The position numbers were made by a program, and so were the translations under genes. The notes below the pieces were generated by a model. That model worked only from the letters and a program-made list of their open reading frames with translations, was not told where the DNA came from and did no database searches. A stretch of DNA of 64,000 nt from Candidatus Ghiorseimicrobium undicola (GTDB taxonomy: Bacteria; Omnitrophota; Gorgyraeia; Ghiorseimicrobiales; Ghiorseimicrobiaceae), in NCBI GenBank assembly GCA_002796125.1, contig PCWA01000035.1, forward strand, positions 457 through 64,456. Reading direction: 5' to 3'. Of this stretch, positions 2,579-35,694 are shown piece after piece (position 1 is the first letter of the stretch; the number at the start of each line of letters is the position of its first letter).

Positions 2579-2606
2579 CTAAAAATTTAAAGACGTTTAT
2601 TCTGCC

Positions 2607-3827: not shown

Positions 3828-3854
3828 AACTGAATATTTCACAAGGAGGTTTAA

Positions 3855-5112: not shown

Positions 5113-5144
5113 AAAGATATGCCGGATAAAAAGGCGTTAATTTT

Positions 5145-6386
5145 ATGATTAGGAAAGCAGAATCATTTTTCAGGATTTTTAGCCCTAAAAAGCGTTTATT
5201 TCCGGCTGGGCTGACACTTGTTGAACTGCTGGTGGTTATTGTCTTGGCTGTTATAGTGACCAGCGTAGTTAGTTTGACTTTGAGGGCCGGGTTGGGATCA
5301 TGGCAGATAGGCGAGGGAGAGATAGCCTTGCAGCGCCAGGCACAGCGAATAATGGAGGAAATTATAGAAGGCAAAGATGATATTCCGGGAATTAGAGAAG
5401 CTTTAAGTGTTGTGGAAGCGGACGTTAATTCTTTAGGAGTTGTGCCATTATGGGAAGATATTTATAGGAATTATCAAAAAGAAGAAGCGGAATTCGTATT
5501 GACAAAGCCGTTTAGTCCGGGAGCGCCGCTTCCCATTGGGCAAATGAAGACTCCCGGCTCAAAAAAATATATATCCGTGCCGGCAGTTTTTCTTTATGAT
5601 GAAGACGGTACTTCGCGGGCTGGCGGAAATACGGTAAAATTCCTTAATTCCGTCCCCAGGGGCAGCGATGTCAGGTTGTTATATTTTCCGGACGCCTCAG
5701 GAGACTCCAGTGTTATTATGCGATATTATTGGGATAGGAATTCCAGGAAAATATTCAGGGAATACCGCGGCAGAAAAGAAGAGGTGGTTAAATATGACAG
5801 GAATGTTAATATCGCCGATTTAAAATTTTTATATTATGATAATTTAAATAATATGCTCAGTGTGGGAAAAAAAAGTTCTCTTTCTGCAGTTGGGATAGAT
5901 TTTATTGTTGAAAAAAACAATGTTTTACGGGAGCTTTCTTCTTTTGTTTCTATACGGGGATTGGGCGGTAATTTGGGCAGCGGTTTGGCCTTAAATGAAG
6001 AGATGGAGGTTTTGATTCCCGATAGTAAGCAGATACGCACACTCGCCTTAGATAATATATGGGGAATATCAGACGATGATAAGCTTGATATCGAAATTTC
6101 CGGATACGGCCGCACATGGAAAATTAGTATAGATTTTGGCATATCCGGGGCAGAGCCGTCGATATTAGGATTTAATATCGAGTATCCGCCCGGTTCAGTC
6201 GTATATACGAATAAGCGTATCAGGCCTGCCAAAAGCGGTTTAAATTTATTAAAATTAGGTAATGATTATTATGATTATGACGACGATGCCAATGTCGAAG
6301 ACATAGTTGATGTAAGCGGGGAGGAAGTAAAATTTAGAGTTACGCGTATGGATATATCCGCCGCGGCAATATTTGTAAGGCCTTAA
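5145..6386 (+). CDS. Large pseudopilin-like protein with prepilin N-terminus (GspK/PilX-like).
   Basis: N-terminus FPAGLTLVELLVVIVLAVIVTSVV is a G-LTLVE prepilin cleavage/methylation motif, followed by a ~380-aa domain. Confidence 0.6.
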   Translation: MIRKAESFFRIFSPKKRLFPAGLTLVELLVVIVLAVIVTSVVSLTLRAGLGSWQIGEGEIALQRQAQRIMEEIIEGKDDIPGIREALSVVEADVNSLGVVPLWEDIYRNYQKEEAEFVLTKPFSPGAPLPIGQMKTPGSKKYISVPAVFLYDEDGTSRAGGNTVKFLNSVPRGSDVRLLYFPDASGDSSVIMRYYWDRNSRKIFREYRGRKEEVVKYDRNVNIADLKFLYYDNLNNMLSVGKKSSLSAVGIDFIVEKNNVLRELSSFVSIRGLGGNLGSGLALNEEMEVLIPDSKQIRTLALDNIWGISDDDKLDIEISGYGRTWKISIDFGISGAEPSILGFNIEYPPGSVVYTNKRIRPAKSGLNLLKLGNDYYDYDDDANVEDIVDVSGEEVKFRVTRMDISAAAIFVRP

Positions 6387-6397
6387 AAAAACGGAGA

Positions 6398-8104
6398 ATG
6401 CACATGGAAAACCTGGATAAGAAAAGAATGCTGATAGGGGAAATCCTGTTGAAGGAGGGTGTGATAAACGATAAACAGCTAAAGGATGCCTTAAAAGAAC
6501 AGCAGGCTACCGGAAGGCCGCTGGGAGATATTTTAGTCCAGAAGCGGATTATCAGCGAGGAGGATGTGGCGATTAGGCTCAGCGAGCAGCTAAAAATTCC
6601 TTATGTGGATTTAGCGTTTTATTCAATTGAGAATAATATTTTGAACCTTATTCCGGAAAAAGTTGCCAGGAAGTTTAATGTCATGCCGCTTTTTAAAATA
6701 GGCGATTCGCTTACAGTGGCTATGGTTGATCCTTTGGACATAGGAGTAGTTGACCAGCTTATGCAGGTGGCAAAATGCGAAATAGAGCCTGTATTTGCGA
6801 CTAGCTCAAATATTCATGAGGCGATAGATAAATATTATGGCGCCGGCCTTAAGCCATTTGAACAGGCGATAGAAGATATTAAAATAACGCATCAGGAAGA
6901 GTCGCTAAAGCGCCCGGCAGGCAGGGCCGCGGTTGCAAAGTTTTCCTCTCCAGATCAGGCGCCGATAGTTAAATTGGTTAATTCCTTAATAGAGGATGCC
7001 GTAGCTAATGATGTCAGCGATATCCACATCGAGCCGGCTGACAATGCTTTGTTTGCCCGCTATAGGATAGACGGGGTACTTTACGATGTTACGGCCCCTC
7101 CGCGCAAGTTCCAGGAGGCGATAGTTTCCCGTATTAAGATTATGGCGAATATGGATATTGCCGAAAAACGGCTTCCGCAGGAAGGGCGTATTCAAATGCG
7201 CGTTTCCGGAAAGGAAATAGACCTAAGGATTTCTACTTTTCCGACAATCTATGGCGAAAATTTGGTTATCCGCATATTAGACCGCAGTAATGTTCTTTTA
7301 GAGATAGGCGATTTAGGTTTTAATCCGCAGCATTTAACACAATTTGAACAATTAATTACGAGGCCATATGGAATAATACTTGTTACCGGCCCCACCGGAT
7401 CAGGAAAGACGACCACGCTTTATGCCTCTTTAAACAAGATAAATTCTACCGACAAAAATATAATTACTCTGGAAGATCCGGTAGAGTATCGCCTGGAGCG
7501 GATAAGGCAATCACAGATCGATGTTAAATCCGGCTTGACTTTCGCAAAAGGCCTGCGTTCAATATTAAGGCAGGATCCGGATGTGATAATGGTCGGTGAA
7601 ATCAGAGATTTGGAAACAGCCGAAATCGCAATTCATGCCGCCCTGACCGGGCATTTGGTTTTTGCCACGCTTCATACGAATGACGCGGCAGGGGCTATCG
7701 GGCGGCTTGTGGATATGGGTATTGAGCCGTTTTTAATATCTTCTTCGCTTGCCGGTGTTTTAGCACAGCGGCTTATCCGTCGCATCTGCCAAAATTGTAA
7801 AGAAACTTACAAGGCGCAGGAAGGAGTCGTTAAAGAGTTAAAGCTGGATAAAGATGATCTTTCTAGAGGTAAAGGCTGCGATAAATGCCGTGGCACCGGA
7901 TATAAGGGGCGAACGGCTATTTTTGAGCTGCTTATCCCGAATGAACAAATAAAAGAATTAATTATTGAGAAGGCCTCGTCTGATAAAATAAGAAAAGCCG
8001 CCATTGCCGCAAAAATGCAGACACTCTACGAGCACGGATTGTTAAAAGTTAAATCCGGGTTAACTACGGCGGAAGAAGTAATGCGGCTTACCATCGAAGA
8101 ATAG
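6398..8104 (+). CDS. Type II secretion / type IV pilus assembly ATPase (GspE/PilB family).
   Basis: N-terminal T2SSE_N domain, Walker A GPTGSGKTTT, Asp box, Walker B, and a C-terminal tetracysteine zinc motif (CQNCK...CDKCRGTGYKGR). Confidence 0.9.
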   Translation: MHMENLDKKRMLIGEILLKEGVINDKQLKDALKEQQATGRPLGDILVQKRIISEEDVAIRLSEQLKIPYVDLAFYSIENNILNLIPEKVARKFNVMPLFKIGDSLTVAMVDPLDIGVVDQLMQVAKCEIEPVFATSSNIHEAIDKYYGAGLKPFEQAIEDIKITHQEESLKRPAGRAAVAKFSSPDQAPIVKLVNSLIEDAVANDVSDIHIEPADNALFARYRIDGVLYDVTAPPRKFQEAIVSRIKIMANMDIAEKRLPQEGRIQMRVSGKEIDLRISTFPTIYGENLVIRILDRSNVLLEIGDLGFNPQHLTQFEQLITRPYGIILVTGPTGSGKTTTLYASLNKINSTDKNIITLEDPVEYRLERIRQSQIDVKSGLTFAKGLRSILRQDPDVIMVGEIRDLETAEIAIHAALTGHLVFATLHTNDAAGAIGRLVDMGIEPFLISSSLAGVLAQRLIRRICQNCKETYKAQEGVVKELKLDKDDLSRGKGCDKCRGTGYKGRTAIFELLIPNEQIKELIIEKASSDKIRKAAIAAKMQTLYEHGLLKVKSGLTTAEEVMRLTIEE

Positions 8105-20663: not shown

Positions 20664-20702
20664 TTAACCGGATTATTAGAAAAAAAGAAAGGGGATTTTG
20701 AA

Positions 20703-22405: not shown

Positions 22406-22454
22406 AGTTTAATCCGGAGTCAATTCGCACCGCCTTCAGCGGTGCCCATTGAAT

Positions 22455-22581: not shown

Positions 22582-22590
22582 GGTGATAAA

Positions 22591-23361
22591 ATGCTTCCCG
22601 TATACTTAAATATCAGTTTTGCCGCGTATTTTTTATCAATGTTTTTTTATTTCGCGGCTTTATTTTTTAAACATAAAGCCTTGTCTCTGGCCGCGAGGAT
22701 TTTCTTGTGCCTTGGGGTTGCGGGTTTGACGGCTTATATGCTGCTGCGTTGGCAAGTAGCGCAAAGGCCGCCACTTTCTAATATGTTTGAGTCTGTGGTA
22801 TTGTTTGCTTGGGTGGTGGGCCTGGCAGGATTTTTTATCGATATGCGCTACAGGCTTAAGATTCTGGCAGCATTAGTTTCAGCCTTGAGCCTATTAACGC
22901 TCGGTATCAGTTTTTTATTGGATAAAGAGATAGTACCTTTATTGCCTGCTTTAAAAAGTAATTGGCTTACTATTCACGTATTAACATGTTTTATCGGTTA
23001 TGCCGCCTTGACCGTTGGTTTTGTGGCTAGCGTTGTTTTGTTGTTAACTGATGAAAAAACAGATATCTTGGATGCCATAAGCCATAAAACAATCGCCTTT
23101 GGATTTTTATTTCTGACATTAGGTATTGTAAGCGGAGCGGTCTGGGCAAATTCGGCCTGGGGTACATATTGGAGCTGGGACCCGAAAGAGACATGGTCAT
23201 TGATTACCTGGTTTATATACGCGATATACCTGCATGCGCGGTTCAGAAGAGGCTGGAAAGGGAAAAAAGCCGCCTGGTTTTCTATTATTGGGTTTTTGGC
23301 TATGTTATTTACTTATTTTGGAGTAAACTATTTATTGAGAGGGCTGCATAGTTATGCCTAG
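22591..23361 (+). CDS. ccsA: Cytochrome c-type biogenesis protein CcsA/ResC (heme-handling, System II).
   Basis: WWD-domain signature WANSAWGTYWSWDPKETWSLITW, conserved His residues and eight TMs. Confidence 0.9.
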   Translation: MLPVYLNISFAAYFLSMFFYFAALFFKHKALSLAARIFLCLGVAGLTAYMLLRWQVAQRPPLSNMFESVVLFAWVVGLAGFFIDMRYRLKILAALVSALSLLTLGISFLLDKEIVPLLPALKSNWLTIHVLTCFIGYAALTVGFVASVVLLLTDEKTDILDAISHKTIAFGFLFLTLGIVSGAVWANSAWGTYWSWDPKETWSLITWFIYAIYLHARFRRGWKGKKAAWFSIIGFLAMLFTYFGVNYLLRGLHSYA

Positions 23362-24205
23362 AGCGTTTGGAGTCAAAAATACTATAATTTTAATTTTTAT
23401 ATGTGCTTTTATTTTTCCGGCGCTTTCCTTTAGCGCGCTTGTATTTGCGCAGGAGAGCGAATTTAAGGAAAAATGCCGCTCCTGCCATAAGGAGGTTTTG
23501 GATAAATGGGATATGTCAGCTATAAAGCATTATCCTTATCGTGAAGGAAAGTGTGAGTCTTGTCATGCGGCAGAGCACAAAAAATTTACGGCGGAAGCGG
23601 GCAAGCCATGTTTGATTTGTCATGATTTAACGTCTGAAAAAATAAAGAACAGCCATTTTTCTGTAAATTTAAGTGATGTCGATTGTTTTTCATGCCATTA
23701 TACGCATAGCGCGGAGAAAAAAGGATTATTGAAAGAAAGCGTGCATATGCCGTTCTCTTCCGGCATGTGCGAAATGTGCCATAGCGTTGACGGGGGTAAA
23801 ATAAAAGTAAAAGATATGACTAAAAAATCGTGCCTTGCCTGTCATGGTACTTTGGTAAGCAAGGACGATTCAGTTAAGCATATGGGCTATGAAATGCAGG
23901 AATGTGTGGATTGTCACAATCCACATACTTCAAGCCACGAAAAACTTTTAAAAAGCTCTGTTTCTGAGAACTGCTTTCAATGTCATGATAGAGAACAGGC
24001 TAAGAAGCACCCATACGATGTTAGCGTATCTTCGCGTATTTTAAATAATATGCTTGACAAAGATAAGAAAATATGGTTAACTTATAGCAACAAAATAAGT
24101 TGTACGAGCTGTCATCTTCCGCATTCCGCAAGGATCCCATTTTTGCTGAGAGATTCTCTTGATCAGGGGGAGCTTTGCAATCATTGTCATATAAAAAGTA
24201 AGTAA
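23354..24205 (+). CDS. Decaheme cytochrome c (periplasmic/membrane-associated).
   Basis: N-terminal hydrophobic segment and ten CxxCH in 283 aa. Confidence 0.8.
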   Translation: MPRAFGVKNTIILIFICAFIFPALSFSALVFAQESEFKEKCRSCHKEVLDKWDMSAIKHYPYREGKCESCHAAEHKKFTAEAGKPCLICHDLTSEKIKNSHFSVNLSDVDCFSCHYTHSAEKKGLLKESVHMPFSSGMCEMCHSVDGGKIKVKDMTKKSCLACHGTLVSKDDSVKHMGYEMQECVDCHNPHTSSHEKLLKSSVSENCFQCHDREQAKKHPYDVSVSSRILNNMLDKDKKIWLTYSNKISCTSCHLPHSARIPFLLRDSLDQGELCNHCHIKSK

Positions 24206-24222
24206 AGTAGAGGAGTGAAAGC

Positions 24223-25221
24223 ATGGAAAAGAGAAATATTTTTTTTGAAAGATTAGTGAAATTTTTCACGGTGATACTTTTCACTATTTGTTCGCTATTT
24301 TTTGTCGGTTTTCTGCCATCTTTTTGCGAGTCTGCCCCTTCGGGGAAAATAACACATAAATACTTATTTGAGATAAAACCCGATGCAAATAAAATCGGCG
24401 CTTTAAACCAGCCGGCAGATATAGCGGTTGACGTATCAGGTAATTTATATGCTGCTGATACGGTAAATAGCCGCATAGTAGTTTTTGATGCCTCGGGAAA
24501 TGCTAAATTCGCTTTCGGCAGGCATGGAACCGGAAAGGAAGAATTAAGCGCTCCTATGGCTTTAACCGTTGATTCAAAAAATAAAAAGGTTTATGTGGCT
24601 GATTCTTCAAATTACCGCATACAGATATTTAAGACCGACGGCATTTTTCTATCATCCATTGATTTGAATAAAGATAAGACTGGCGAAGAAAAAGATGTGC
24701 GCCCCATAGGGATTGCCGTAGCCGGAGGCGGCAACATCTATGTATCCGATGCGGATAATAACTATATCCGTATATATTCTTCGGATGGTAAATTTTTATC
24801 GAAATTCGGCGGATTTGGATCGGAGAACGGCAAGTTCTGCATACCGGTAGGCTTATTTGTAGATGCGGATGATAAGTTATACGTAGTGGATATGAATAAT
24901 TCCCGGCTGCAGGTTTTTGATAATCAAGGGAATTTTCTATTTAAAATCGGCTCTGCCGGAGACGCAAGAGGCGATTTTGGCAGGCCTAAAGATGTATGCG
25001 TGGATGAGAATGGGTTTATTTATGTTTCTGACGGAGCAAATTTGGTCATCCAGATTTTTGATAAGAACGGTGAATTTATTGACTTAATAGGTGCGGAGAA
25101 AGAAGTTGATTTACAGTTTGCTTCTCCGTTTGGTTTGGCGGTATTAAATGGACGCCTTTATATAACGGACAGATGGAGAAATAGTATCAGAGTTTATGAA
25201 ATTGAGGAGGTGAGTAAATGA
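24223..25221 (+). CDS. NHL-repeat six-bladed beta-propeller protein, secreted.
   Basis: Signal peptide and repeated NHL motifs (YVADSSNYRIQIF, YVSDADNNYIRIY, YVVDMNNSRLQVF, YVSDGANLVIQIF, YITDRWRNSIRVY). Confidence 0.8.
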   Translation: MEKRNIFFERLVKFFTVILFTICSLFFVGFLPSFCESAPSGKITHKYLFEIKPDANKIGALNQPADIAVDVSGNLYAADTVNSRIVVFDASGNAKFAFGRHGTGKEELSAPMALTVDSKNKKVYVADSSNYRIQIFKTDGIFLSSIDLNKDKTGEEKDVRPIGIAVAGGGNIYVSDADNNYIRIYSSDGKFLSKFGGFGSENGKFCIPVGLFVDADDKLYVVDMNNSRLQVFDNQGNFLFKIGSAGDARGDFGRPKDVCVDENGFIYVSDGANLVIQIFDKNGEFIDLIGAEKEVDLQFASPFGLAVLNGRLYITDRWRNSIRVYEIEEVSK

Positions 25222-26318
25222 AAAAGGTTTTTGTTTTGCTGGCGGGGTTTATTTTTGTGGTCGCGGCTTACGGAACAGCCGTAGCCGGTGTTGCCAATAC
25301 CGATCACGATATGTATGCAGAGGGCAAGGGCACAGATCCCAATGTATGCGGTTACTGTCATATTCCGCATAACGCGGTTGGTAATAAAATCTGGTCTGAC
25401 TGGGGTAATGAAGCACAGCTTACATCAGGCCCTTCCAGCCCGATAGGGAACATGTGTTATACCTGCCATGACGGGACAGCAACTAATGCGGGCCAGACTA
25501 CAGTATTCAATACGGCTCTTCAGCAGCATAAAGTAGGCGGGACCGCCGACTGTAATAGTTGCCACACCGTTCATGATAATACTAACGGTAAATTTGTTGG
25601 TATTGTCGCGACTCAGAGCGCAAATACAGAATTTGCCACTTACTGCGAAACTTGCCATGATGCGACTCAGTATCCCGGGGCAGAGATTCACGGTGACCAC
25701 ATTGCAGGCAGTGAGCATCCCTATAAAGATACTGGTGCGTTGCTGGATACCAGCTGTAACGCCTGTCATCAGATGCACGGAGCTGTTAATTACACAACCG
25801 GTTCTTTAACTAATCCGATATTAAAAGCGGATAATACTGATTCGGCGTTTTGCGCCGGATGCCACCCCGCTAAAATACAGGCAACTTCAGGAGCTAATAA
25901 ACATCCTGCTAATTTAACATCGGGAGGGGCTTGGGGTAAGGTTGATTGTCAAGCCTGTCATGACGTGCATCAACCTAATGATCCGGGCAGGCCGTTTGTA
26001 TTACTGGATGATAATGTTGATTCTGCTTATTGCCTTAGTTGTCATGATGCTTCAAGCACGACTAATGGCCCTAAGATTGGAGCCAATAGCCATCCTGTGG
26101 GGGTCGGTTTTAGTGTTACGCCTACGGATCCGACGCTTACTCCTGCCGGAGATGCCATTGATGATAATAACACCGGCGGGCCGGATTATCCGGGAAATAG
26201 TTCGAGCATAGTTTGCGAAAGCTGTCATTCCATACACAGCAAAGGAGTAGCGGCTCCGCTCTTGCGTATTACCGCAGGCGCGGGCACATTATGTATTAAT
26301 TGTCATCCGAACAAATAG
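25218..26318 (+). CDS. Multiheme cytochrome c, paralogue 1 of a tandem family (10 CxxCH).
   Basis: Signal peptide, then HDMY-x-GKGTDPNVCGYCHIPH...KIWSDWGNEAQLTSGPS...IGNMCYTCHDGT, the N-terminal block shared with 26509, 27736 and 28911. Confidence 0.8.
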   Translation: MKKVFVLLAGFIFVVAAYGTAVAGVANTDHDMYAEGKGTDPNVCGYCHIPHNAVGNKIWSDWGNEAQLTSGPSSPIGNMCYTCHDGTATNAGQTTVFNTALQQHKVGGTADCNSCHTVHDNTNGKFVGIVATQSANTEFATYCETCHDATQYPGAEIHGDHIAGSEHPYKDTGALLDTSCNACHQMHGAVNYTTGSLTNPILKADNTDSAFCAGCHPAKIQATSGANKHPANLTSGGAWGKVDCQACHDVHQPNDPGRPFVLLDDNVDSAYCLSCHDASSTTNGPKIGANSHPVGVGFSVTPTDPTLTPAGDAIDDNNTGGPDYPGNSSSIVCESCHSIHSKGVAAPLLRITAGAGTLCINCHPNK

Positions 26319-26347
26319 ATGCAGTAATGTTTTAGATGATAATAGGG

Positions 26348-26377
26348 AAGGGCTACTATTGTTTGATGGTAGCCCTT
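26348..26377 (+). terminator. Hairpin (aagggctac / gtagccctt), a weak Rho-independent terminator candidate between cytochrome paralogues 1 and 2.
   Basis: 9-bp perfect stem with an 11-nt loop, followed by ttccc (short U-tract). A second GC hairpin (cttcggcg...cgccgaag) lies at about 26456-26485. Confidence 0.35.
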
Positions 26378-26508
26378 TTCCCACAAAAAGATTTTAACCC
26401 GCCTTCGCGGAATTCTCCGCCTTGTAAGGCCGGGATGGATAGCTGAGGAATTCCGCTTCGGCGAGGTTTTCGCCGAAGGGAAGAGAAAGATTCTACGCTC
26501 TTACAGGC

Positions 26509-27678
26509 GTGGAGCTTCAAAAAAATTTAATGAAAATTATACATACCGGAATTATTTTGACGTCATCAATTTTTTTATTCTCTATAGCCGATTTGTCTTT
26601 TGCCGGAGTCGCCGGATCCCGGCACGACATGTATTTTTTGAGCAAAGGAACCGACCCTAATCCCTGCGCATACTGCCACATACCGCATAATGCCGCGGGT
26701 GATAAAATCTGGTCTGACTGGGCAAATGAGGCTCAACTCACCAGCGGCCCGTCAACGACCATTGGTAATATGTGCTATACCTGCCATGACGGGACTGCCA
26801 GCTATCGCGGCTTAAATAGCGTATTTAATCTTTCTCTGCAGCAGCATAAAATATCTGCCGGCCGGGATTGCGATATGTGCCACAGTGTGCATGATAACAC
26901 TAACGGGCAATTTATGAATATAGCGGGTAAGCAGAATTCTTATTGTGCCGCCTGTCATGATGCTGCGGTTAATGCCGGAGGGTTAGGCGACCATGTAAGC
27001 TATCCCGCGAATCATCCAAATTGCGGAGGGTGCCATGGAGTATTTGAACTGGATTCATTAGGGGCAAACGGCGATGATGCCAGCTGCCACCTTTGTCATG
27101 CTAAAGCTCACGGCGCGGTAAATTATACGGCAGGATCGATAACTAATCCTATATTAAAATCCAATAATACGGATAGCCAGTATTGCGGGCTTTGCCATCC
27201 GGATTTGGTCCAGGCGAATTCAGGCGGCAGCAAGCATCCGGCCAATACATCAGGCAGTGCTTATGGTAAGATAACATGCCAGTCATGCCATGACCCGCAT
27301 CAGCCCGGGATAACAAACCAGCTGTATCTATTGACGGACAGCAATATAGACTCGCAGATGTGTATTGATTGTCATAACGGTTCCAGCGGCCCGGACATCG
27401 GGCATTCTCATCCTAATCAAGTTAGTTTTGGCACTATTGTTCCTGTAGATGCTTCGCCGCAGACAGGTACCCCTCCGGGTAATCAAATAAATGATAATGA
27501 TTATGATGATGGACATTCGGATCCGGATACTTACCCTGATTATCCCGCTAATTCCGCCAGCATGATATGCGAAACCTGTCATAGCGTGCATCGCAAAGCG
27601 GATAATGCCGGAATAAAACTTTTAAGAATAACCAATACTAATTCGGCATTGTGCTTAAACTGCCACACGGACAAGTAA
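26509..27678 (+). CDS. Multiheme cytochrome c, paralogue 2 (11 CxxCH).
   Basis: Same N-terminal block (SRHDMYFLSKGTDPNPCAYCHIPH...) and shared C-terminus LLRITNTNSALCLNCHTDK. Confidence 0.8.
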   Translation: MELQKNLMKIIHTGIILTSSIFLFSIADLSFAGVAGSRHDMYFLSKGTDPNPCAYCHIPHNAAGDKIWSDWANEAQLTSGPSTTIGNMCYTCHDGTASYRGLNSVFNLSLQQHKISAGRDCDMCHSVHDNTNGQFMNIAGKQNSYCAACHDAAVNAGGLGDHVSYPANHPNCGGCHGVFELDSLGANGDDASCHLCHAKAHGAVNYTAGSITNPILKSNNTDSQYCGLCHPDLVQANSGGSKHPANTSGSAYGKITCQSCHDPHQPGITNQLYLLTDSNIDSQMCIDCHNGSSGPDIGHSHPNQVSFGTIVPVDASPQTGTPPGNQINDNDYDDGHSDPDTYPDYPANSASMICETCHSVHRKADNAGIKLLRITNTNSALCLNCHTDK

Positions 27679-27735
27679 GTATAGAGTATTGGGTATTGAG
27701 TATAGAGTATCGAGTACGAGAATTAAAAATTAAAA
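27676..27735. repeat. 7-bp-periodic tandem repeats (gagtat-type, then attaaaa/gaatcaa-type) filling the spacer between cytochrome paralogues 2 and 3.
   Basis: gtaagta tagagta ttgggta ttgagta tagagta tcgagta cgag aattaaa aattaaa aATGaag aatcaag aatcaaa. Confidence 0.8.
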
Positions 27736-28914
27736 ATGAAGAATCAAGAATCAAAAACTGCAGGTTATTTGAAAATTCCCTTAGCCATTAGTTTAATAGT
27801 TCTGGCTTATAATTTAAGTTTCGCCGGGGTGTCCGGGACAGTCCATGACATGTATTCTTTAGGTAAGGGAACAGACCCGAACCCCTGCGGCTATTGCCAT
27901 ATGCCGCATAAGGCCGCAGGAGAGAAAATCTGGTCCGACTGGGGCAATGAGACGCAATTAACCAGCGGTCCATCAACCGCCATAGGTAATATGTGCTATA
28001 CCTGCCATGATGGGACAGTGACTAATGTGGGTTTATCGACAGCGTTTAACGCTTCCCGGCAGCAGCATAAAATACCTGCCGGGCAGGATTGCGATATGTG
28101 CCATAGCGTGCATGATAATACGAACGGAAAGTTTATGAATGTTGTAAAGAAACAGCAAACATATTGCGCCGCCTGCCATGATGCAATAGTTAATGCTGGG
28201 GGGCTTGGCGATATGACTTCAGCTGGAAATCATCCCAGTTATTGGGCGTCTACGCCCGCTCATAATATAAATGGTTCACCCACCGGCGCATTCTGTACGG
28301 CTTGTCATGAACGCGTGCATTATTCTCAATTTGACTGCAGGGGATGTAATTTTTGCCATAAAGCACATGACGGGACTAATTATTCAACCGCGCAAGTGCC
28401 TAATCCGATTTTAAAAGCCGACAATACTGATAGTCAGTATTGTGCCTCATGCCATCCATATAAGATTCAGGCATCAAGCGGTGGTGATAAACATCCGGCA
28501 AACCTTGCGGCAGCTGGCAACTGGGGAAAGGTTATTTGCCATGATTGCCACGATCCGCACCAGCCCGGTGTTACGAACCATCCTTTTATATTAACGGATA
28601 CTAATGTTGATTCGGCAATGTGTATTAATTGCCACGATAATACAGCCGGGCCTGAGATAGGAGTTTCGCATCCGCATCAGATTCCTTTTGGCAGTATAGT
28701 TCCGACTGATGGCTCTGCTGCGGCTGGTACGCCCGCTGCGAATGCAATAGATGATGACGGAGAAGACGGAGTTGATTATCCATTAAATTCAGCTAATCTT
28801 ATTTGTGAGACGTGTCATGGAACACACCGCAGAGTTGATGATGCGGGGACTAAACTACTTAGAATAACCAATACTAATTCGGCATTGTGCCTAAACTGCC
28901 ACACGGATAAATGA
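27736..28914 (+). CDS. Multiheme cytochrome c, paralogue 3 (11 CxxCH).
   Basis: Same family. The last ~80 nt are nearly identical to paralogue 2. The N-terminal MKNQESK is encoded by heptamer repeats. Confidence 0.8.
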   Translation: MKNQESKTAGYLKIPLAISLIVLAYNLSFAGVSGTVHDMYSLGKGTDPNPCGYCHMPHKAAGEKIWSDWGNETQLTSGPSTAIGNMCYTCHDGTVTNVGLSTAFNASRQQHKIPAGQDCDMCHSVHDNTNGKFMNVVKKQQTYCAACHDAIVNAGGLGDMTSAGNHPSYWASTPAHNINGSPTGAFCTACHERVHYSQFDCRGCNFCHKAHDGTNYSTAQVPNPILKADNTDSQYCASCHPYKIQASSGGDKHPANLAAAGNWGKVICHDCHDPHQPGVTNHPFILTDTNVDSAMCINCHDNTAGPEIGVSHPHQIPFGSIVPTDGSAAAGTPAANAIDDDGEDGVDYPLNSANLICETCHGTHRRVDDAGTKLLRITNTNSALCLNCHTDK

Positions 28915-30086
28915 TGAAATTAAAAATGAAAAATAAAAAATCTAAAACCGTGACTTATTTTAAAATTCCCTTAGCCGTCAGTTTATTTTTTTTGATTTAT
29001 GATTTAAGTTTTGCGGGGGTGTCTGGGACAGTCCATGATATGTACACACAGGGTAAAGGCACTAGCCAGGAGGTATGCGCTTATTGCCATATTCCTCATC
29101 AGGCCAAAGGTGATAAAATCTGGTCTGACTGGGCAAATGAGGCTCAACTCACCAGCGGCCCGTCAACAACCATAGGCAATATGTGCTATACCTGCCACGA
29201 CGGGACAGTGACCAATATAGGCTTATCAACGGTATTTAATGCTTCGCTGCAGCAGCACGTTATGCCTGCCGGCCAGGATTGCGATATGTGCCATTCTGTG
29301 CACGATAATACTAACGGTAAGTTTATGAATGTCGGCTTAACCGAGAACTATTATTGCGCCAGTTGCCATAATGCTGCGGTAAACGCTGGCGGGCTGGGTG
29401 ATTATACGAATTCAGGAAACCATTTTAATTATGGCGTATATGACGGCGCCCATCCCAAAAGGTTTGGCTCCGGCTGTTATAGCTGCCATTATGATCATAT
29501 GCAAAGCATCGTGAGTTTAGGCAGTTGTAAATTCTGCCATGAAGCTCATGCCGGAGCGAATTATTCTACGCCATCGGTATCTAAACCTATCTTGCGTATT
29601 GATAACACCGATAGCGCATTTTGTATATCTTGTCATCCTGCGATGCAGCAGGCGACGACAGGCGGCAATAAGCATCCCGCTAATTTGACTGCCGGAGGAA
29701 ATTGGGGCATAGTGGATTGCCATGACTGCCATGATGTACATCAGCCGAATAATCCTAATAATCCTTTTATATTACGTAACCAAAATACCGATTCCGGATA
29801 CTGCGCATATTGTCACGAGGCGATTAATGAAACCTATGGGCCTAAAATCGGTAATGGGCATCCGGTAAATATTGCTTTCGGAGCCTATCCTCCGATTGAT
29901 GCGTCTTTGACGCCTGCGGGCAATGCTATAGATGATGACGCATATTACGGGATAGATTATCCGGCAAATTCATCCGATATGATATGCGAAACATGCCATT
30001 CGGTGCATCGAAAGGGCGTGGCAAGCCCTCTATTGCGCATGAGCATTACGGATAGCTCGTTATGCCTTAACTGTCATCAGATGTAA
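28911..30086 (+). CDS. Multiheme cytochrome c, paralogue 4 (11 CxxCH).
   Basis: Same family. Its start overlaps the stop of paralogue 3. A 56-nt stretch is identical to paralogue 2 (gataaaatctggtctgactgggcaaatgaggctcaactcaccagcggcccgtcaac). Confidence 0.8.
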   Translation: MMKLKMKNKKSKTVTYFKIPLAVSLFFLIYDLSFAGVSGTVHDMYTQGKGTSQEVCAYCHIPHQAKGDKIWSDWANEAQLTSGPSTTIGNMCYTCHDGTVTNIGLSTVFNASLQQHVMPAGQDCDMCHSVHDNTNGKFMNVGLTENYYCASCHNAAVNAGGLGDYTNSGNHFNYGVYDGAHPKRFGSGCYSCHYDHMQSIVSLGSCKFCHEAHAGANYSTPSVSKPILRIDNTDSAFCISCHPAMQQATTGGNKHPANLTAGGNWGIVDCHDCHDVHQPNNPNNPFILRNQNTDSGYCAYCHEAINETYGPKIGNGHPVNIAFGAYPPIDASLTPAGNAIDDDAYYGIDYPANSSDMICETCHSVHRKGVASPLLRMSITDSSLCLNCHQM

Positions 30087-30132
30087 TGCGGTTGTTGGCA
30101 GTGAGTTATGAATTAGGCGAGATAAAAGAAAA

Positions 30133-31572
30133 ATGAAAAGCATAAAAACTTTATTACCTATATTTGTTTTTATTGTCTGTCTTTTTGCTGCCAGCCATGT
30201 TTTTGCTTCACACGGCCAGGGACAAAAATGTTATATGTGCCATCATGCTATGCATAATAATAATTCTCATGTAGTTATAGACCGCAAGGCTGTTGACAAT
30301 GGGCAGATAGCTTGTTATGATTGCCATTCTTCGGCCAGCGCAGTGGCAGCCCCGGACACGGAAAAAGAATTTATAAGCGGCTATTCCCGTCATCCTTTAG
30401 GAAGCGATAGCGAGTGCGTTGTCTGTCATGATTTGGGCAGCAGCCATATAGACGGTAATCTTGATAGTTGGCCGGACATAACCTTGAAAGATCCAGACTC
30501 GGCGGATTCCCATGTGTACACCGGAGTTAAAATTAATGATTTTTGCCTTTCCTGCCATGATAACAGCCCGGTTACTTTAGGCGGGGCGGCGAATGTGCCT
30601 GTAGATTTATCCAGCGCTTATGAATTTACCGGCCACGGTAAAATAAGCATAGATGAGCCTTGTAATTCCTGCCATGAACATCATGCGTCCATGACTAAAC
30701 CCTACTTGATTAAAGATGTAATTAACAGCGCCAATGTTACGGGAAACGATAATAGCGTATGTTTTGCCTGCCATAGTTATTCAGAAGGAATTTATCCCGG
30801 AAAGAATGTTTATTTATCTTCCGAGCACGGCATCCAAAACAAACTTTGCATAGACTGCCACAATCCGCATGGGGACAATAAGGATTTATGTTATTTATGC
30901 CACAACGCGAATTACTCGGCGCATTACAGCACGCAGCGCGATAAGCTTTGCATAGACTGCCATAATCCGCACGAAAAGAACGACTTAAAGATGAACAGGG
31001 AAGACGAGGAAAAGCTTTGTTTTATTTGTCACTCCGGACTGGAAAATGAATTTGGGAATATCCGAGACGGCGTCGGAGGGGCATTTTCTCATCATAAAGT
31101 TGACGATGAAGAATTCGCAGGCGGCAGGGTAGAATGTTTTGACTGCCATAATCCGCATGTAGTTACAAAGCTGAATATCATTAGCGACCCGGAAGATCCT
31201 CTGCTCATGCCCAGGCCTTTTTCAAGCGCGTCATACCGCCAGAGAACGGCAGTTTATGATGATTTTTGCCTTTCCTGCCACGATGGTTCACGCATGGGCG
31301 CAAAGGACATAGCTTCAGAATTAAGCGATGAAAATTATCTGGATAGCGGTTTTACCGAAGACGGCAGCAAGAACCTGCATGCAGAGCACAAGGATAAAAA
31401 TTTTGGATGCCAAAACTGTCATGATGCGCATTCCAGCGACGGAACCGGAGGCATGCAGCGGGGGGCTCTTTTACATGAGGAAATAACAGTAAATGATTGG
31501 GATCCATCCGGCGGATATAATAACGGTAAAAATTCATGCGATACTTCAGCTTTAGGTATGAGCTGTCATTAA
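30133..31572 (+). CDS. Periplasmic multiheme cytochrome c (about 13 CxxCH).
   Basis: Signal peptide and 13 CxxCH motifs in 479 aa. Directly upstream of the outer-membrane beta-barrel gene. Confidence 0.8.
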   Translation: MKSIKTLLPIFVFIVCLFAASHVFASHGQGQKCYMCHHAMHNNNSHVVIDRKAVDNGQIACYDCHSSASAVAAPDTEKEFISGYSRHPLGSDSECVVCHDLGSSHIDGNLDSWPDITLKDPDSADSHVYTGVKINDFCLSCHDNSPVTLGGAANVPVDLSSAYEFTGHGKISIDEPCNSCHEHHASMTKPYLIKDVINSANVTGNDNSVCFACHSYSEGIYPGKNVYLSSEHGIQNKLCIDCHNPHGDNKDLCYLCHNANYSAHYSTQRDKLCIDCHNPHEKNDLKMNREDEEKLCFICHSGLENEFGNIRDGVGGAFSHHKVDDEEFAGGRVECFDCHNPHVVTKLNIISDPEDPLLMPRPFSSASYRQRTAVYDDFCLSCHDGSRMGAKDIASELSDENYLDSGFTEDGSKNLHAEHKDKNFGCQNCHDAHSSDGTGGMQRGALLHEEITVNDWDPSGGYNNGKNSCDTSALGMSCH

Positions 31573-31611
31573 TGTTTAGAATATATAATGCAGAATGTAG
31601 AATGTAAAATT
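31570..31611. repeat. 7-bp-periodic tandem repeat (tagaatg-type) spanning the stop of the 13-heme cytochrome and the start of the beta-barrel gene.
   Basis: taatgtt tagaata tataatg cagaatg tagaatg taaaatt. Confidence 0.8.
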
Positions 31612-33387
31612 AACGAGGTAGAAGGGATATTACTATTTTTAGGGGTGTTTTTATGCGCTTTTTTATTTCTTTGCAAAAGTTCTTATGCGAATCCGGCAGA
31701 GAATTTAAATATTAATGCCGAATCCGAATATAAATTCAGTGATTTTGAGCGCGATCCGGAACCAGCCTTGTCATCAACCGGAGCGAATCTTTCCCAGGAG
31801 TATAAGTTTTATTTAGAAGGAGGGGTATTAAAAGACGGGTTGCTTGATGCCGAATTAGGAGTGTCCACGCAGGATAAATACAGGCAAAATGATGCGGATT
31901 TTGAAGATAAGGTGCGTTTTGATTACGGCAGGATTCTACGCATAGAAACAGAGACAACTAGAGAAACCGATGAAGAGATATTCTTTTCAGCCACTACTGA
32001 GCCGCAATCCCCGATATATACAATACGTAAAAAGTATGACGGCCGGCTTGCTCTGGACAGCGTATCAGAATTTGAGTATATTTTAGATCAAAACGAGAGG
32101 AATGATTTGCTTCTTGGCACTGTTACCGGAGAAAAAACCAAAACGCAAATTTTGCGTTTTCGTTCTGATAGGGGGCCTTTGAGTTTTGAAAGCGAATACC
32201 GAAAATCTGACTTTGATGACCTTTTGGGCGTACGCAGCGACATCAGTTCCACGGATTTGAATTTTAATCTTTCTTATCGTCCGGTAAAGTATTTTGGTAT
32301 TTCCGGTTTTTTTGAAGAGAGCAAGGATGAGGATTTAGATAGAAGTACGGAGTTAAATTCCCGTAACTCGCGCCTTGAACTTGAGTTAAAGCCCTTAAAT
32401 GAATTAAAATTGCGTAATCGTTTTAATATCCGGGAAGACGAAGATACAAATACCGGCGAAGACATAACCAATACCTCTGATGAGGTTATACTTAATTTTA
32501 TTCCTGTAAAACAGGTTGACTTACAGCTTAACTATAAAAAAGAGGACGAAGATAAAAACAGAGATTCTTCCTCCATTGTTTCCGAGATTGACGAAAAAAA
32601 AGTCCGCCTAAGAATTAAGCCGGTAAGCGAGCTTGACCTGCAATCGGGATATGAAGTGTCGGATAAGTCAAGTAGTTCAGCGGCTGAAAATATCAAAAAT
32701 ACAAAAGTTTATGCCGATATCGCGTTTGAGCCGTTAACAAGTATCCGGCTAAGCACGAATTACACGAATACAACACAAAAAAATACCTTTACTTCTTTGA
32801 CGGAATCTGATACAAAATCTATATTGGCATCCCTTCAGTATAGGGGAGGCGAAAAGCTGTCTTTCTATTTTCAGGCGGATACAAGTAAAACCGATAATCC
32901 TTCAACGGGGGCGTTTACAAAGACAGATACCCTAAGTTCAAATTTAAATATCGATCTTTTTTCATTTCTTGATGTAGTTGCCCGTAGCAGCCTGCAGGAA
33001 ACCAGCGGATCTTCCGCTTCTGCTTTGGCAAAACGGCTGCTTAGCTCGATAGAATTCAATGCTCGGATTTTTGATAACCTGAAGCTTTCTACTGAGTATG
33101 AATTTATTGATTCAAGCGGAGCGTCTGCTTCAAATGAAGATTTATTTGATGTAGCGGTATTTTACAATATTGGAAAATTTGATTTTTCCTTGCGCCTCCA
33201 GAAGCGGGATGTAGCAGGAGTTAATGCCTTAGATAAAACAACGGTGTTGAGTAATATTAAATACAGATTTACAAAAAACGCGGTATTGAGTTTCAGGTTT
33301 TCCTTAATAGATTTCAGCGATAAAGAGATGGCGGCGAATAGCTATGACTCCACCACGCTGGAGAGTATTTTATCCATGAGGTTCTGA
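31588..33387 (+). CDS. Outer-membrane beta-barrel protein (putative porin component of a porin-cytochrome conduit).
   Basis: Signal peptide, 599 aa of alternating amphipathic S/T/D/N/Y-rich segments, and a C-terminal ...ILSMRF ending in Phe (OMP signature). Flanked by multiheme cytochromes. Confidence 0.6.
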   Translation: MQNVECKINEVEGILLFLGVFLCAFLFLCKSSYANPAENLNINAESEYKFSDFERDPEPALSSTGANLSQEYKFYLEGGVLKDGLLDAELGVSTQDKYRQNDADFEDKVRFDYGRILRIETETTRETDEEIFFSATTEPQSPIYTIRKKYDGRLALDSVSEFEYILDQNERNDLLLGTVTGEKTKTQILRFRSDRGPLSFESEYRKSDFDDLLGVRSDISSTDLNFNLSYRPVKYFGISGFFEESKDEDLDRSTELNSRNSRLELELKPLNELKLRNRFNIREDEDTNTGEDITNTSDEVILNFIPVKQVDLQLNYKKEDEDKNRDSSSIVSEIDEKKVRLRIKPVSELDLQSGYEVSDKSSSSAAENIKNTKVYADIAFEPLTSIRLSTNYTNTTQKNTFTSLTESDTKSILASLQYRGGEKLSFYFQADTSKTDNPSTGAFTKTDTLSSNLNIDLFSFLDVVARSSLQETSGSSASALAKRLLSSIEFNARIFDNLKLSTEYEFIDSSGASASNEDLFDVAVFYNIGKFDFSLRLQKRDVAGVNALDKTTVLSNIKYRFTKNAVLSFRFSLIDFSDKEMAANSYDSTTLESILSMRF

Positions 33388-34331
33388 TGGAATATCAAAT
33401 ACCGAATATTGAAAATCAAAAATACAGATCTATTATTTTTTTGATTTTTATATTTGTTTCTTTGCAGCTTGCGTTTTTTATAGATAAAAATACTGCCTTT
33501 GCCGAAGGGCTAAAGAATCTTAATGATGACTGCCGCGGCTGTCATCAAATAGAAGTTGAAAGTTTTGATTTAACTTTACACTCAGCGGAGATTGATTGTG
33601 CTGCCTGCCATGGTGATGTTAAAAAACATTTAAGCGAAAGCGATAAAAAAGGCAATATAATTAATCCCGCTAATTACGCGTTAAAAAAGGCAAATGCCGT
33701 ATGCCTGCTTTGTCATACGGAAAAAGAAAGAGATGTCCGCGATAAATTCAGGGCGGTTGCTAATCTGCATGATGATATAGCGTGTTTTAGGTGCCATGTT
33801 GTTCATTTGACTGCTGTAGATGCTCCGGTAAGCGATATTGACGGTTTTAGAGATGATTTATCTATAGATTGCGCCTTCTGCCATGATGACCAGGGCCGGA
33901 TTTTTAGCGAGTCGGAGCATGCCTCTTCAGGCCTGATATGTTCCGATTGCCATCTGCTGCATAAGATAAGTACCATAAGCCAGGATATTGAAGAGCAGAT
34001 TGAAAAATGCCTTTCATGCCATCCTCAGCAGCAGCTGGAATTTAAATACCCCTATCCGCATCCATTAAGAGAGCGGCAAATTAAATGTTCGGATTGCCAT
34101 AATCCGCACGGTTGGCAATTTGATAAAATGCTAAAAAAAGACGGCGATAGGGTTTGCGCGGATTGCCATGCCGACGTGGCCATAGAAGGAGGCAGGCATC
34201 CCGCGGGTAAAAACGCGGACCATCCGTTCGGCACTGTAGCGTGTATGGATTGCCACAGGCCGCACGGCTCAATTTTTGATAAAATTTTAATACATAATAT
34301 TGATAGTATTTGCCAAACCTGCCATAATTAG
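33387..34331 (+). CDS. Multiheme cytochrome c (about 11 CxxCH).
   Basis: Signal peptide and 11 CxxCH in 314 aa. Translationally coupled to the beta-barrel gene (start overlaps its stop). Confidence 0.8.
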   Translation: MEYQIPNIENQKYRSIIFLIFIFVSLQLAFFIDKNTAFAEGLKNLNDDCRGCHQIEVESFDLTLHSAEIDCAACHGDVKKHLSESDKKGNIINPANYALKKANAVCLLCHTEKERDVRDKFRAVANLHDDIACFRCHVVHLTAVDAPVSDIDGFRDDLSIDCAFCHDDQGRIFSESEHASSGLICSDCHLLHKISTISQDIEEQIEKCLSCHPQQQLEFKYPYPHPLRERQIKCSDCHNPHGWQFDKMLKKDGDRVCADCHADVAIEGGRHPAGKNADHPFGTVACMDCHRPHGSIFDKILIHNIDSICQTCHN

Positions 34332-34385: not shown

Positions 34386-34392
34386 GGATTGA

Positions 34393-35250
34393 ATGTATAA
34401 GAACATGAAATGCAAAATATTACTGGTTACGAGTTACTGGCTGCTGGTTACTTTCTTTATTGGCTGCGCGAGCGGGCCATCAAGTTATTGGCGGCCTAAG
34501 CATTTCTCGCGCTCTAAGTACATAAAGGTTGCCATAGTGCCTTTTACAAATCTCAGTAAAGAAAAGGAAGCTGATCAAAGGATAGCCTATTCATTGATAA
34601 CGCATCTTCTCAATACGCATTATTTTAATGTTGTTGAAATGGGGGAAGTGCAAAGGGCTTTGAAGGAAGCCAAGGTGCGCAAGGATGAGGGCCTCTCGGT
34701 AGAGGAAATTAAAAAAATCGGCCGGCTGATTGATGTAGAAGCCTTGCTTATGGGCGCGGTAGAAGAGTATAAGATTGATTCCAGCACTTTACTTGGAGAA
34801 AAAGTATTTGTGCCGGAAGTGTCGATTAACGCGAGGTTAGTCTCTACTGAAGACGCCGAGATAATCTGGGCCGCGAATCACCATCGCAGAGGGGATGACA
34901 GGGTAACTGTGTTTGGGATGGGCAGAATTGACTCTATCAGCGAATTGACAGATGTTATTATAAAGAACATTGTTAATTCTTTGCTTAAAGTGGCAAAAAG
35001 CAAGAGGAGCGCGCTTACCGGGTTAAAACGAAGCGTTATTTTGGAGGATGTCCCAGACGAGGAATTAGAAAATACCGTTTTGGATATTAAGCCTGCCTTA
35101 CGCGAAGATGTCATGGATAAGGCAATGGAAAGCGTAAAAACGGCGTCAAAAGATTCCTCAAGCGCGATAGCGCCTAAAACAGAAGATTCAAAGGCAAAAA
35201 TAAAAAGCGATTACAAAAGAGAGTATGAGCGTGTAAAAAAACAATTTTAA
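34393..35250 (+). CDS. Lipoprotein (lipobox FIGC), unknown function.
   Basis: N-terminal LLVTFFIGCASG signal plus lipobox. Part of the cytochrome/porin cluster. Confidence 0.5.
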   Translation: MYKNMKCKILLVTSYWLLVTFFIGCASGPSSYWRPKHFSRSKYIKVAIVPFTNLSKEKEADQRIAYSLITHLLNTHYFNVVEMGEVQRALKEAKVRKDEGLSVEEIKKIGRLIDVEALLMGAVEEYKIDSSTLLGEKVFVPEVSINARLVSTEDAEIIWAANHHRRGDDRVTVFGMGRIDSISELTDVIIKNIVNSLLKVAKSKRSALTGLKRSVILEDVPDEELENTVLDIKPALREDVMDKAMESVKTASKDSSSAIAPKTEDSKAKIKSDYKREYERVKKQF

Positions 35251-35259: not shown

Positions 35260-35694
35260 ATGACAAGATTTTCCGGGAAAATAATTATATTTTGTTTGAT
35301 ATCGCTTGTAGCGGTTATTTCCTATAGCATTAGCCAGGAAATTTTAAATTCCGGAGAGGACTGCATTAAATGCCATGATCCGGCACTTGGCCCGCAAAGA
35401 AATTTTGTCCATCCGTTAATAAGAGAACATAAGTGCCGTGCTTGTCATATTGATTACGACGCCGAAGAACATATAGAAGGCGATAAGCCCCAAATAGATG
35501 TATGCGCAGGGTGCCATCCGGAGGAAAACCTCGGGCGTTCTCATCCTATTGGCAGCGGGATTACTGACCCTAATACCAATGATACGATGACCTGTGTTTC
35601 CACATGCCATAGGATGCACGGTACGGATTTTAAGCAGCTTGTCCCTTTTAAAAATAATATGGAGCTATGTTTAAGTTGCCATGAAGACTTTTAA
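35260..35694 (+). CDS. Small multiheme cytochrome c (4 CxxCH plus 1 CX3CH).
   Basis: Signal anchor plus CIKCH, CRACH, CAGCH, CLSCH and CVSTCH. Confidence 0.7.
   Translation: MTRFSGKIIIFCLISLVAVISYSISQEILNSGEDCIKCHDPALGPQRNFVHPLIREHKCRACHIDYDAEEHIEGDKPQIDVCAGCHPEENLGRSHPIGSGITDPNTNDTMTCVSTCHRMHGTDFKQLVPFKNNMELCLSCHEDF

Follow-up and report, generated by a model that had tools for sequence, protein, structure and literature searches.

A tandem array of 10- and 11-heme cytochromes in an Omnitrophota genome: candidate extracellular relatives of the nanowire protein OmcE

In a 64,000-nt stretch of a Candidatus Ghiorseimicrobium undicola contig (PCWA01000035.1; the whole stretch is referred to here as the window), positions 24223-30086 hold five co-directional genes, one for an NHL-repeat beta-propeller and four for tandemly arranged multiheme cytochrome paralogues, here named P1 to P4. 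Sequence comparison suggests that these cytochromes are an extended branch of the OmcE superfamily, a lineage with one nanowire-forming member. We lean toward reading them as secreted, bis-histidine (bis-His) ligated OmcE-type cytochromes at the extracellular end of an electron-transfer operon, and we propose that they form a head-to-tail wire. An extracellular location is probable; polymerization is put forward tentatively, as something that may well turn out otherwise. The genes of the array, all on the plus strand of the window, are as follows.

24223..25221, plus strand: NHL-repeat beta-propeller gene, 332 aa, 0 CxxCH, Pfam NHL E 1.3e-37, match to a 6-bladed propeller family
25218..26318, plus strand: paralogue P1, 366 aa, 10 CxxCH
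26509..27678, plus strand: paralogue P2, 389 aa from a GTG start, 11 CxxCH
27736..28914, plus strand: paralogue P3, 392 aa, 11 CxxCH, C-terminal tail of the P2 type
28911..30086, plus strand: paralogue P4, 391 aa, 11 CxxCH, "...CHQM" orthologous subtype

Open reading frames (ORFs) and counts of the heme-binding motif CxxCH agree with the initial annotation of this DNA, which had described four tandem multiheme paralogues of 366-392 aa with 10-11 hemes beside an NHL propeller; the interval given there starts at 24223, which is the start of the NHL gene and not of P1. The NHL gene heads the array and overlaps P1 by 4 nt, and its product carries an N-terminal hydrophobic anchor or signal. Protein identity among the four cytochromes is 55-63%, each contains 22-26 His, and none of their sequences holds a CxxCK or other nonstandard heme motif. 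Their leaders, as read from the sequence, are basic and hydrophobic, putatively of the Sec type, and end in AVAG or SFAG, in line with the earlier view of them as secreted-type proteins; a lipobox is absent from all four. The mature chains open with V-x-(G/N)-x-x-HDMY, and the N-terminal blocks described previously recur in every one of them, whereas the C-terminus reported as common to the set, LLRITNTNSALCLNCHTDK, is exact in P2 and P3 only and is replaced by variants in P1 and P4. The P2 ORF begins at a GTG (26509) without an upstream Shine-Dalgarno sequence, and the public protein is this longer form; translation could plausibly start instead at an ATG in the same frame (26530), which would give a more typical leader (MKIIHTG...).

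The relationship to OmcE emerged when a profile of the four paralogues was searched against all PDB sequences. The matches were the OmcE bundle of D. soudanensis (9yuq; E 4.5e-11) and the OmcE nanowire of G. sulfurreducens (7tfs; E 6e-10); no sequence besides these two fell below E 0.02, and OmcS, OmcZ, and archaeal nanowire chains were absent at E<=1. By fold, too, OmcE was the only PDB match. The initial annotation, according to which the sequence differs from OmcS, OmcE, and OmcZ, thus stands for OmcS and OmcZ but was wrong for OmcE, to which homology is detectable. Aligning a 105-sequence family alignment with OmcE by hhalign gave a probability of 98.1% (E 8e-14) and placed OmcE hemes 1-4 on P2 residues 22-151, and tetraheme proteins matching OmcE at E 3e-36 appeared at the edge of the same family search. 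Common to OmcE and P1 to P4 are an HD motif, CxxCHxPHNA...W, CxxCHDG, and CxxCHxVHDNT...F(L/M)...CxxCH, and the aligned OmcE ligands comprise the four CxxCH and three distal His (those of the HD motif, CxxCHxPH, and CxxCHxVH). As in OmcE (7TFS; 9YUQ), a leader is followed by the HD motif ~7 residues into the mature chain, then by heme 1 (CxxCHxPH) with a conserved Trp, heme 2 (CxxCHDG), and the paired unit CxxCHxVH(D)...(F/L)(L/M)...CxxCH, in a chain that is mostly coil. We presume the identity of the His that is donated in OmcE by analogy with His16 of OmcS.

Read from these alignments, the family plan would be that of OmcE (heme 1, heme 2, and one pair) plus three further paired-CXXCH units. 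Self-comparison delineates four paired units (hemes 3-4, 6-7, 8-9, and 10-11), and the last pair together with the extreme C-terminus again resembles the C-terminus of OmcE. Across the 105-sequence alignment, 10 CxxCH and another 10 His show little or no variation, which argues for bis-His electron-transfer hemes, not a catalytic site, and fits bis-His ligation of all hemes in P1 to P4. Conservation is uneven along the chain: mean pairwise identity among the four is 70% in the N block (hemes 1-4), 47-58% in the other segments, and 32%, with indels, in a hypervariable stretch of ~60 aa (P2 residues 151-212), inside which the extra heme of the 11-heme forms sits. The diversified center noted earlier is therefore real, if ~60 aa rather than ~120 aa long. 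In an AlphaFold2 model of a single, heme-free chain, the least confident segment (residues 60-76, with a predicted local distance difference test score, pLDDT, of <50) is the most conserved block, right after CxxCHxPH, a combination that would fit a subunit interface. From the OmcE-type motifs at both ends and the variable middle, we propose that the subunits would assemble into a wire through head-to-tail contacts of the OmcE kind.

The family to which P1 to P4 belong (~360-410 aa, 9-11 hemes) is sharply bounded, with E values in the profile search passing from ~1e-104 for full-length members straight to 1e-39, and no member bears a functional name. P1 has an identical counterpart in COV72_02540, and P3 in COV72_02550, both from Candidatus Omnitrophica bacterium CG11_big_fil_rev_8_21. 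One group consists of 10-11-heme proteins in Omnitrophota with 45-72% identity to P2; the other consists of 9-heme proteins of ~380 aa (30-36% identity) in metagenome-assembled genomes (MAGs) labelled Zixibacteria, Krumholzibacteriota, Eisenbacteria, and Acidobacteriota, with single loci also in Deferrimicrobium, Ignavibacteria, and Verrucomicrobia MAGs. Family genes also lie on contigs binned as Woesearchaeota (archaea) and Kerfeldbacteria (candidate phyla radiation), our loci L010 and L024; the L010 proteins are ~50% identical to Omnitrophota ones, so these bins probably hold misassigned contigs. Copy number, which the initial annotation had singled out for comparison, does vary among Omnitrophota genomes, from 2 (loci L009 and L011) through 3 (L002 and L008) and 4 (this window) to 6 (L001). 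In a neighbor-joining tree the paralogues cluster by subtype across genomes and not by genome, which indicates that the duplications are old; the subtypes are the 10-heme P1 type, a P2 type ending ...CHTDK, a P4 type ending ...CHQM, and P3 together with the protein P0013. The six-copy locus (ENA ERZ21828306 contig-100_39, 5236-7380) encodes a natural fusion, P0280, a 714-aa, 21-heme protein in which a 10-heme unit and an 11-heme unit are joined in frame, head to tail; the second unit is without a leader, and its HD motif reads VHLKHNM. We take this fusion as a hint of a head-to-tail arrangement.

A second feature that extends well beyond this genome is the pairing with an NHL propeller. Among the nonredundant loci scanned, an NHL gene directly precedes 111 of the 156 family-profile genes, and a further 21 of the 156 are directly preceded by another family gene. 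The linkage is seen in Zixibacteria, Krumholzibacteriota, Eisenbacteria, Acidobacteriota, and Aquificota, and the cytochromes concerned carry 4 to 28 hemes. Loci of the Zixibacteria type have 9-heme, 4-heme (OmcE-sized), and 5-heme members next to one another, each preceded by an NHL gene of its own, and several of the NHL proteins have canonical lipoboxes. This NHL-first linkage across phyla is strong comparative evidence, drawn from gene order, that the propeller would be a dedicated partner of OmcE-superfamily cytochromes, and we propose that it could serve in the assembly, docking, or anchoring of P1 to P4.

Repeated NHL-cytochrome modules occur within one cluster in loci L013, L017, L030, and similar ones (Zixibacteria, Krumholzibacteriota, and Eisenbacteria). 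The L013-type order is NHL (~515 aa) and 9-heme, 10-heme, NHL (~340 aa, with lipobox) and tetraheme, NHL (~330 aa) and tetraheme, and NHL (~505 aa) and pentaheme, that is, four OmcE-superfamily cytochromes of differing heme number with one propeller apiece. In Desulfurobacteriaceae/Thermovibrio MAGs (L047, L053, L055, L057-L059, and L082), an NHL gene of ~270 aa is followed by an 890-aa, 24-heme match to the family profile; it is possible that these 24-heme Aquificota proteins are single-chain "wires" of the OmcE-related lineage.

The genes around the array, whose order is conserved across six Omnitrophota loci, would supply the remainder of an electron-transfer route.

815..8104, plus strand: type II secretion system (T2SS)/type IV pilus-like genes (secretin, GspF-type platform, pseudopilin with N-methylation motif, GspE-type ATPase)
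8755-19849, plus strand: siroheme-route heme biosynthesis genes, directly upstream of the cytochrome operon
19869-20663, plus strand: NapC/NirT-type 8-heme membrane cytochrome (counterpart in related loci: Pfam Cytochrom_NNT)
20703-21233, plus strand: 4-heme cytochrome
21344-23361, plus strand: ResB and CcsA, system II cytochrome c maturation (counterparts in related loci: Pfam ResB and Cytochrom_C_asm)
23354..24205, plus strand: 10-heme cytochrome, 283 aa, upstream of the NHL gene, a conserved cluster member
30133..31572, plus strand: 13-heme cytochrome, 479 aa, directly upstream of the barrel gene, in an MtrC-like position
31588..33387, plus strand: MtrB-like outer-membrane beta-barrel, 599 aa, ~30 strands
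33387..34331, plus strand: MtrA/DmsE-type periplasmic cytochrome, 314 aa, 11 hemes, TIGR03508 E 3.4e-42 (below the curated cutoff)
34393..35250, plus strand: CsgG/LpoB-like lipoprotein, lipobox FIGC, conserved in the cluster
35260..35694, plus strand: tetraheme cytochrome, 144 aa, conserved in the cluster

From 19869 to 35694 there are ten cytochromes with 93 heme motifs in sum. The 11-heme cytochrome at 33387-34331 matches MtrA (6r2q_A) at E 2.1e-24, and it is these neighbors at 31588-34331, not P1 to P4, that show the hallmark of an MtrAB-type conduit, an MtrA/DmsE-type cytochrome beside a large MtrB-like barrel. The molecule name of 6r2q chain A, "Cystathionine beta-synthase," looks like a depositor or annotation slip, the matched sequence being 333 aa long and of the decaheme type. 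Homologues of the barrel were found in 12 Omnitrophota proteins only, at the sensitivity used. In the route that we propose, electrons would pass from the NapC/NirT-type quinol dehydrogenase through small periplasmic multiheme cytochromes to the MtrA-like cytochrome in the MtrB-like barrel, and from this conduit to the 13-heme cytochrome and P1 to P4 outside.

Such a route could also end in monomers, a reading no less ordinary, and this is the main rival: P1 to P4 would be terminal cytochromes of the outer surface, seated on the MtrAB-like conduit and/or the 13-heme protein like MtrC, OmcA, MtrF, and UndA of Shewanella, with no polymer and with surfaces or redox windows that vary from paralogue to paralogue to suit different minerals or partners. 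The MtrA homologue and MtrB-like barrel lie immediately downstream, copy number varies among genomes as would be expected of accessory surface cytochromes, the old subtypes have been kept distinct across genomes, and an 11-heme rod would already span ~9-10 nm, estimated at roughly 0.9 nm per heme. Searches of P1 to P4 against Pfam and NCBIfam gave generic multiheme matches only, except for weak matches of P2 to P4, just above the cutoff, to Pfam MtrC/MtrF domains II/IV. On the other hand, the OmcA/MtrC family model TIGR03507 matches none of the four. MtrC and OmcA are lipoproteins, and P1 to P4 have neither a lipobox nor the MtrC fold; moreover, monomers would leave the OmcE-type termini and the head-to-tail fusion unexplained. 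We regard this alternative as possible, if on the doubtful side.

The case for polymerization combines the OmcE-type ends with the variable middle, the natural fusion, the context of NHL propeller and barrel, and the low-confidence conserved segment. Several observations weigh against it, or against the OmcE relationship behind it. Profile scores run too high where sequences are rich in CxxCH, and a generic repeated paired-CXXCH unit accounts for part of the likeness between the C-terminus and OmcE. The fourth distal His of OmcE (in NDHP) has no clean alignment in the N module: its sole alignment is with the C-terminal SHP motif, in another register, and H113 is a second possible counterpart. 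His counts cannot separate ligation within a subunit from ligation between subunits, a complete MtrAB-like conduit with a 13-heme partner lies next door, so that P1 to P4 could simply be monomeric surface cytochromes, and the fusion P0280 is found in a single assembly only. There are also larger single-chain relatives (700-2000 aa, 12-33 hemes), which indicate that heme chains in this lineage can grow covalently and do not require polymerization. Finally, all family members come from MAGs and are known from genes alone.

A further alternative keeps P1 to P4 inside the cell envelope, as periplasmic electron carriers or storage rods that feed the MtrA-like cytochrome and are not exported past the outer membrane. 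It would agree with the leaders, which are of the Sec type only and accompanied by no recognizable dedicated export signal, and with the distance to the T2SS genes: the initial annotation had called these adjacent, but they lie 17-24 kb upstream, with the heme-biosynthesis cluster in between. Long periplasmic multiheme cytochromes have also been proposed elsewhere, e.g., PCC3 (bioRxiv 10.1101/2023.01.26.525709). However, the only relatives of known location are the extracellular OmcE filaments, the cluster already contains three smaller periplasmic-looking cytochromes, and hypervariable inserts and gene conversion are, in our judgment, more typical of exposed proteins. We therefore consider a periplasmic role improbable, and less likely than that of monomeric surface cytochromes.

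At the DNA level, the paralogues are mosaic, with short identical tracts set in otherwise diverged genes.

26698..26756, plus strand: gene-conversion tract in P2, 59 nt identical to P4, encoding GDKIWSDWANEAQLTSGPS
29109..29167, plus strand: partner tract in P4, 59 nt identical to P2 26698-26756
27625..27654, plus strand: 3' conversion tract in P2, a 30-nt exact run equal to P3 28861-28890

The identical stretch between P2 and P4 had been noticed before and is real; it is 59 nt long, not 56, and the P4 coordinates quoted for it were off by two, so that the two ranges as given are not identical. Within it, the A, L, T, S, G, P, and S residues have the same codons in P2 as in P4. The peptide encoded by P1 and P3 is identical or almost so, yet is spelled with other codons, nine 4- to 6-fold degenerate codons in the tract differing in these two genes. 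Constraint on the protein cannot explain this identity, which points to gene conversion instead. Short 20-nt runs such as that encoding KIWSDW may merely reflect conserved codons of low degeneracy. The near-identity previously reported for the last ~80 nt of P2 and P3 was somewhat overstated, although the similarity itself holds: the last 87 nt are ~83% identical, and the last 51 nt contain 3 differing sites (counted from the codon display). That P3 falls in another clade and nevertheless carries a P2-type tail fits conversion at the 3' end. P3 and P4 are 74-80% identical in the 5' leader region, compared with 28-53% for other pairs. In a GENECONV-style permutation of polymorphic sites among P1 to P4, the longest matching runs (20 sites each) had p<=1e-4 both for P2/P4 and for P2/P3. 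Third-codon-position identity overall is 36-46%, and synonymous sites outside the tracts are saturated (proportion of synonymous differences, pS, 0.71-0.83), which bears out the high synonymous divergence noted earlier and makes regional ratios of nonsynonymous to synonymous change (dN/dS) among the four genes uninformative on positive selection in the variable insert. Arrays in other genomes have exact runs between paralogues too, of 20-41 nt and mostly in the N block. The initial annotation had spoken of ongoing gene conversion; conversion tracts are indeed present, but they are short and the paralogues are old orthologous subtypes, so that homogenization is limited. On our proposal, such short tracts would keep the shared N block alike.

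Because the window comes from a metagenome assembly, the mosaic blocks might in principle be assembly chimeras, or, quite differently, the genes might encode a known periplasmic multiheme enzyme; we find both barely credible. Proteins identical to P1, P2, P3, and P4 (the last from its second Met) recur on 2-3 public contigs each, so that the mosaic is not an assembly chimera, which settles the artifact concern raised at the outset, and the related arrays elsewhere with their own exact runs speak in the same sense. A known enzyme family was ruled out, there being no enzyme-family match above the Pfam or NCBIfam curated cutoffs, and the heme motifs are all of the standard form.

P1 differs from the other three in ways that may bear on its role. 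It represents a distinct 10-heme orthologous clade whose genes lead all of the Omnitrophota arrays examined, and its Shine-Dalgarno sequence (GAGGAGG) is the strongest in the array. The 190-nt spacer behind it (26319-26508) is strongly structured (folding free energy, dG, -67.9 kcal/mol; z -3.5) and contains the following element.

26345..26382, plus strand: stem-loop with a 16-bp stem, just after the P1 stop

A long hairpin stands at the same place after the 10-heme gene in five of six Omnitrophota loci, its sequence not being conserved. An Rfam scan of 19-37 kb gave no match, the hairpin included, and a promoter/terminator consensus scan, whose counts were not above shuffled expectation, missed the hairpin because it is without a T-run. 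The hairpin is possibly an intra-operon attenuator or mRNA stabilizer, and it may govern how much P1 is made relative to P2-P4. As the first gene, with the best Shine-Dalgarno sequence and a hairpin behind it, P1 may be the major subunit, in which case P2 to P4 would be alternative or minor subunits with the same joining ends and different exposed surfaces. It is tempting to speculate on a modular, heteropolymeric nanowire built of a P1 major subunit and interchangeable P2-P4 minor subunits, which would share OmcE-type ends kept alike by conversion, differ in their heme-bearing inserts, be assisted by the NHL protein as a chaperone, and stand on an MtrAB-like base. Taken as a whole, this picture is rather unlikely.

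Compared with OmcE itself, which has 4 hemes in ~200-230 aa and a single gene, P1 to P4 have 10-11 hemes in 366-392 aa, three extra paired-CXXCH units, and a hypervariable heme-bearing insert, and in Omnitrophota they occur as two to six tandem paralogues; OmcE is known from solved filaments, P1 to P4 from genes. The published minimal OmcE cluster lies beside resB/ccsB and holds two multiheme cytochromes, beta-propeller lipoproteins, OmcE, and a large beta-barrel (Petersen et al., bioRxiv 10.1101/2025.10.22.684050). The locus described here has all items of that list (a propeller, a large barrel, multiheme cytochromes, and resB/ccsB), the barrels being matched by description; it differs in having one NHL gene, not clearly that of a lipoprotein, in place of two propeller lipoproteins. 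The same preprint reports OmcE homologues from five phyla, Omnitrophota not among them (bioRxiv 10.1101/2025.10.22.684050), and describes five-heme "OmcE-like" proteins that, as here, are OmcE-related, carry extra CxxCH, and come from uncultured phyla (Petersen et al. 2025). Those keep the OmcE length and add a single exposed heme, whereas the P1-P4 family has nearly doubled the length and added 5-7 hemes. Apart from a 2026 preprint with "OmcE-like" 8-13-heme models in peat Acidobacteriota and Verrucomicrobiota, the OmcE variants discussed in the literature are 5-heme forms only.

The initial annotation had instead drawn a parallel to the omcS-omcT-NHL locus of Geobacter. There, too, tandem nanowire-cytochrome paralogues stand beside an NHL-repeat gene, GSU2505, which OmcS is believed to require for its assembly or expression (PMC9070056). 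The OmcE cluster fits better: OmcS has six hemes, a different gene context, and no sequence match to P1-P4 at E<=1, so that with 10-11 hemes these are not members of the OmcS family. The uet cluster of Candidatus Tenderia (UetJ undecaheme, UetA tetraheme, UetH/I NHL, UetC barrel, and CcsAB; bioRxiv 10.1101/2022.05.06.490989) resembles the locus by its parts list only, in that an 11-heme predicted extracellular "heme wire" directly follows NHL genes and is accompanied by a tetraheme cytochrome, a barrel, and ccsAB; the peptidyl-prolyl isomerase (PPIase) and triheme c7 genes of uet are absent here. No Tenderia protein was among the matches listed in two family searches, which is not conclusive on UetJ.

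With MtrCAB/OmcA of Shewanella (6R2Q), the array shares the neighboring MtrA homologue and MtrB-like barrel and the tandem arrangement of paralogues. The mtrC, omcA, mtrF, and undA genes are tandem surface cytochrome genes whose number varies between strains. P1 to P4 are set apart by being OmcE-related, without the MtrC fold and not lipoproteins, and Mtr clusters are without an NHL partner. The P1-P4 family is unnamed, and its tandem arrays with conversion tracts, the natural fusion, and the near-universal pairing with NHL proteins appear to be undescribed.

Some further observations concern the surrounding DNA. The genes at 8755-19849 make up a near-complete set for the siroheme-dependent (alternative) route, with sirohaem synthase-like, glutamyl-tRNA reductase (GluTR), HemC, fused methylase/HemD, two radical-SAM/SPASM, HemB, two NirD/L-type siroheme decarboxylase-like, and HemL proteins. 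A 146-aa CcsA-like fragment lies at 9410-9850, and a 195-aa Cys-rich ORF with a hydrophobic N-terminus and no Pfam match at 17947-18534, between the heme-biosynthesis genes and hemL. In two related loci (L002, 5179-7950; L001, 1-1987), a 923-aa, 19-heme protein with a faint cytochrome b (Ni_hydr_CYTB) signal is encoded between ccsA and the 10-heme cytochrome; this gene is absent from the window.

Few cytochrome nanowire structures are known. The family described here points to a large uncultured branch of the OmcE lineage in Omnitrophota, Zixibacteria, Krumholzibacteriota, Acidobacteriota, and Aquificota, in which the 4-heme plan would have been lengthened to 9-28 hemes, and which would be intermediate between polymerizing small subunits and giant single-chain heme wires. 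Nearly every member of this branch has its own NHL propeller, which makes the proposed assembly role of NHL proteins directly testable, and arrays with conserved ends and variable middles would suit the study of how wire surfaces diversify. If true, a heteropolymeric wire would be the cytochrome equivalent of a pilus or flagellum made from major and minor subunits, in small-celled Omnitrophota. Omnitrophota are mostly discussed as ultra-small and host-dependent; a complete 93-heme extracellular-electron-transfer operon, accompanied by genes of its own for heme biosynthesis and cytochrome maturation, implies respiration of minerals or electron exchange between cells.

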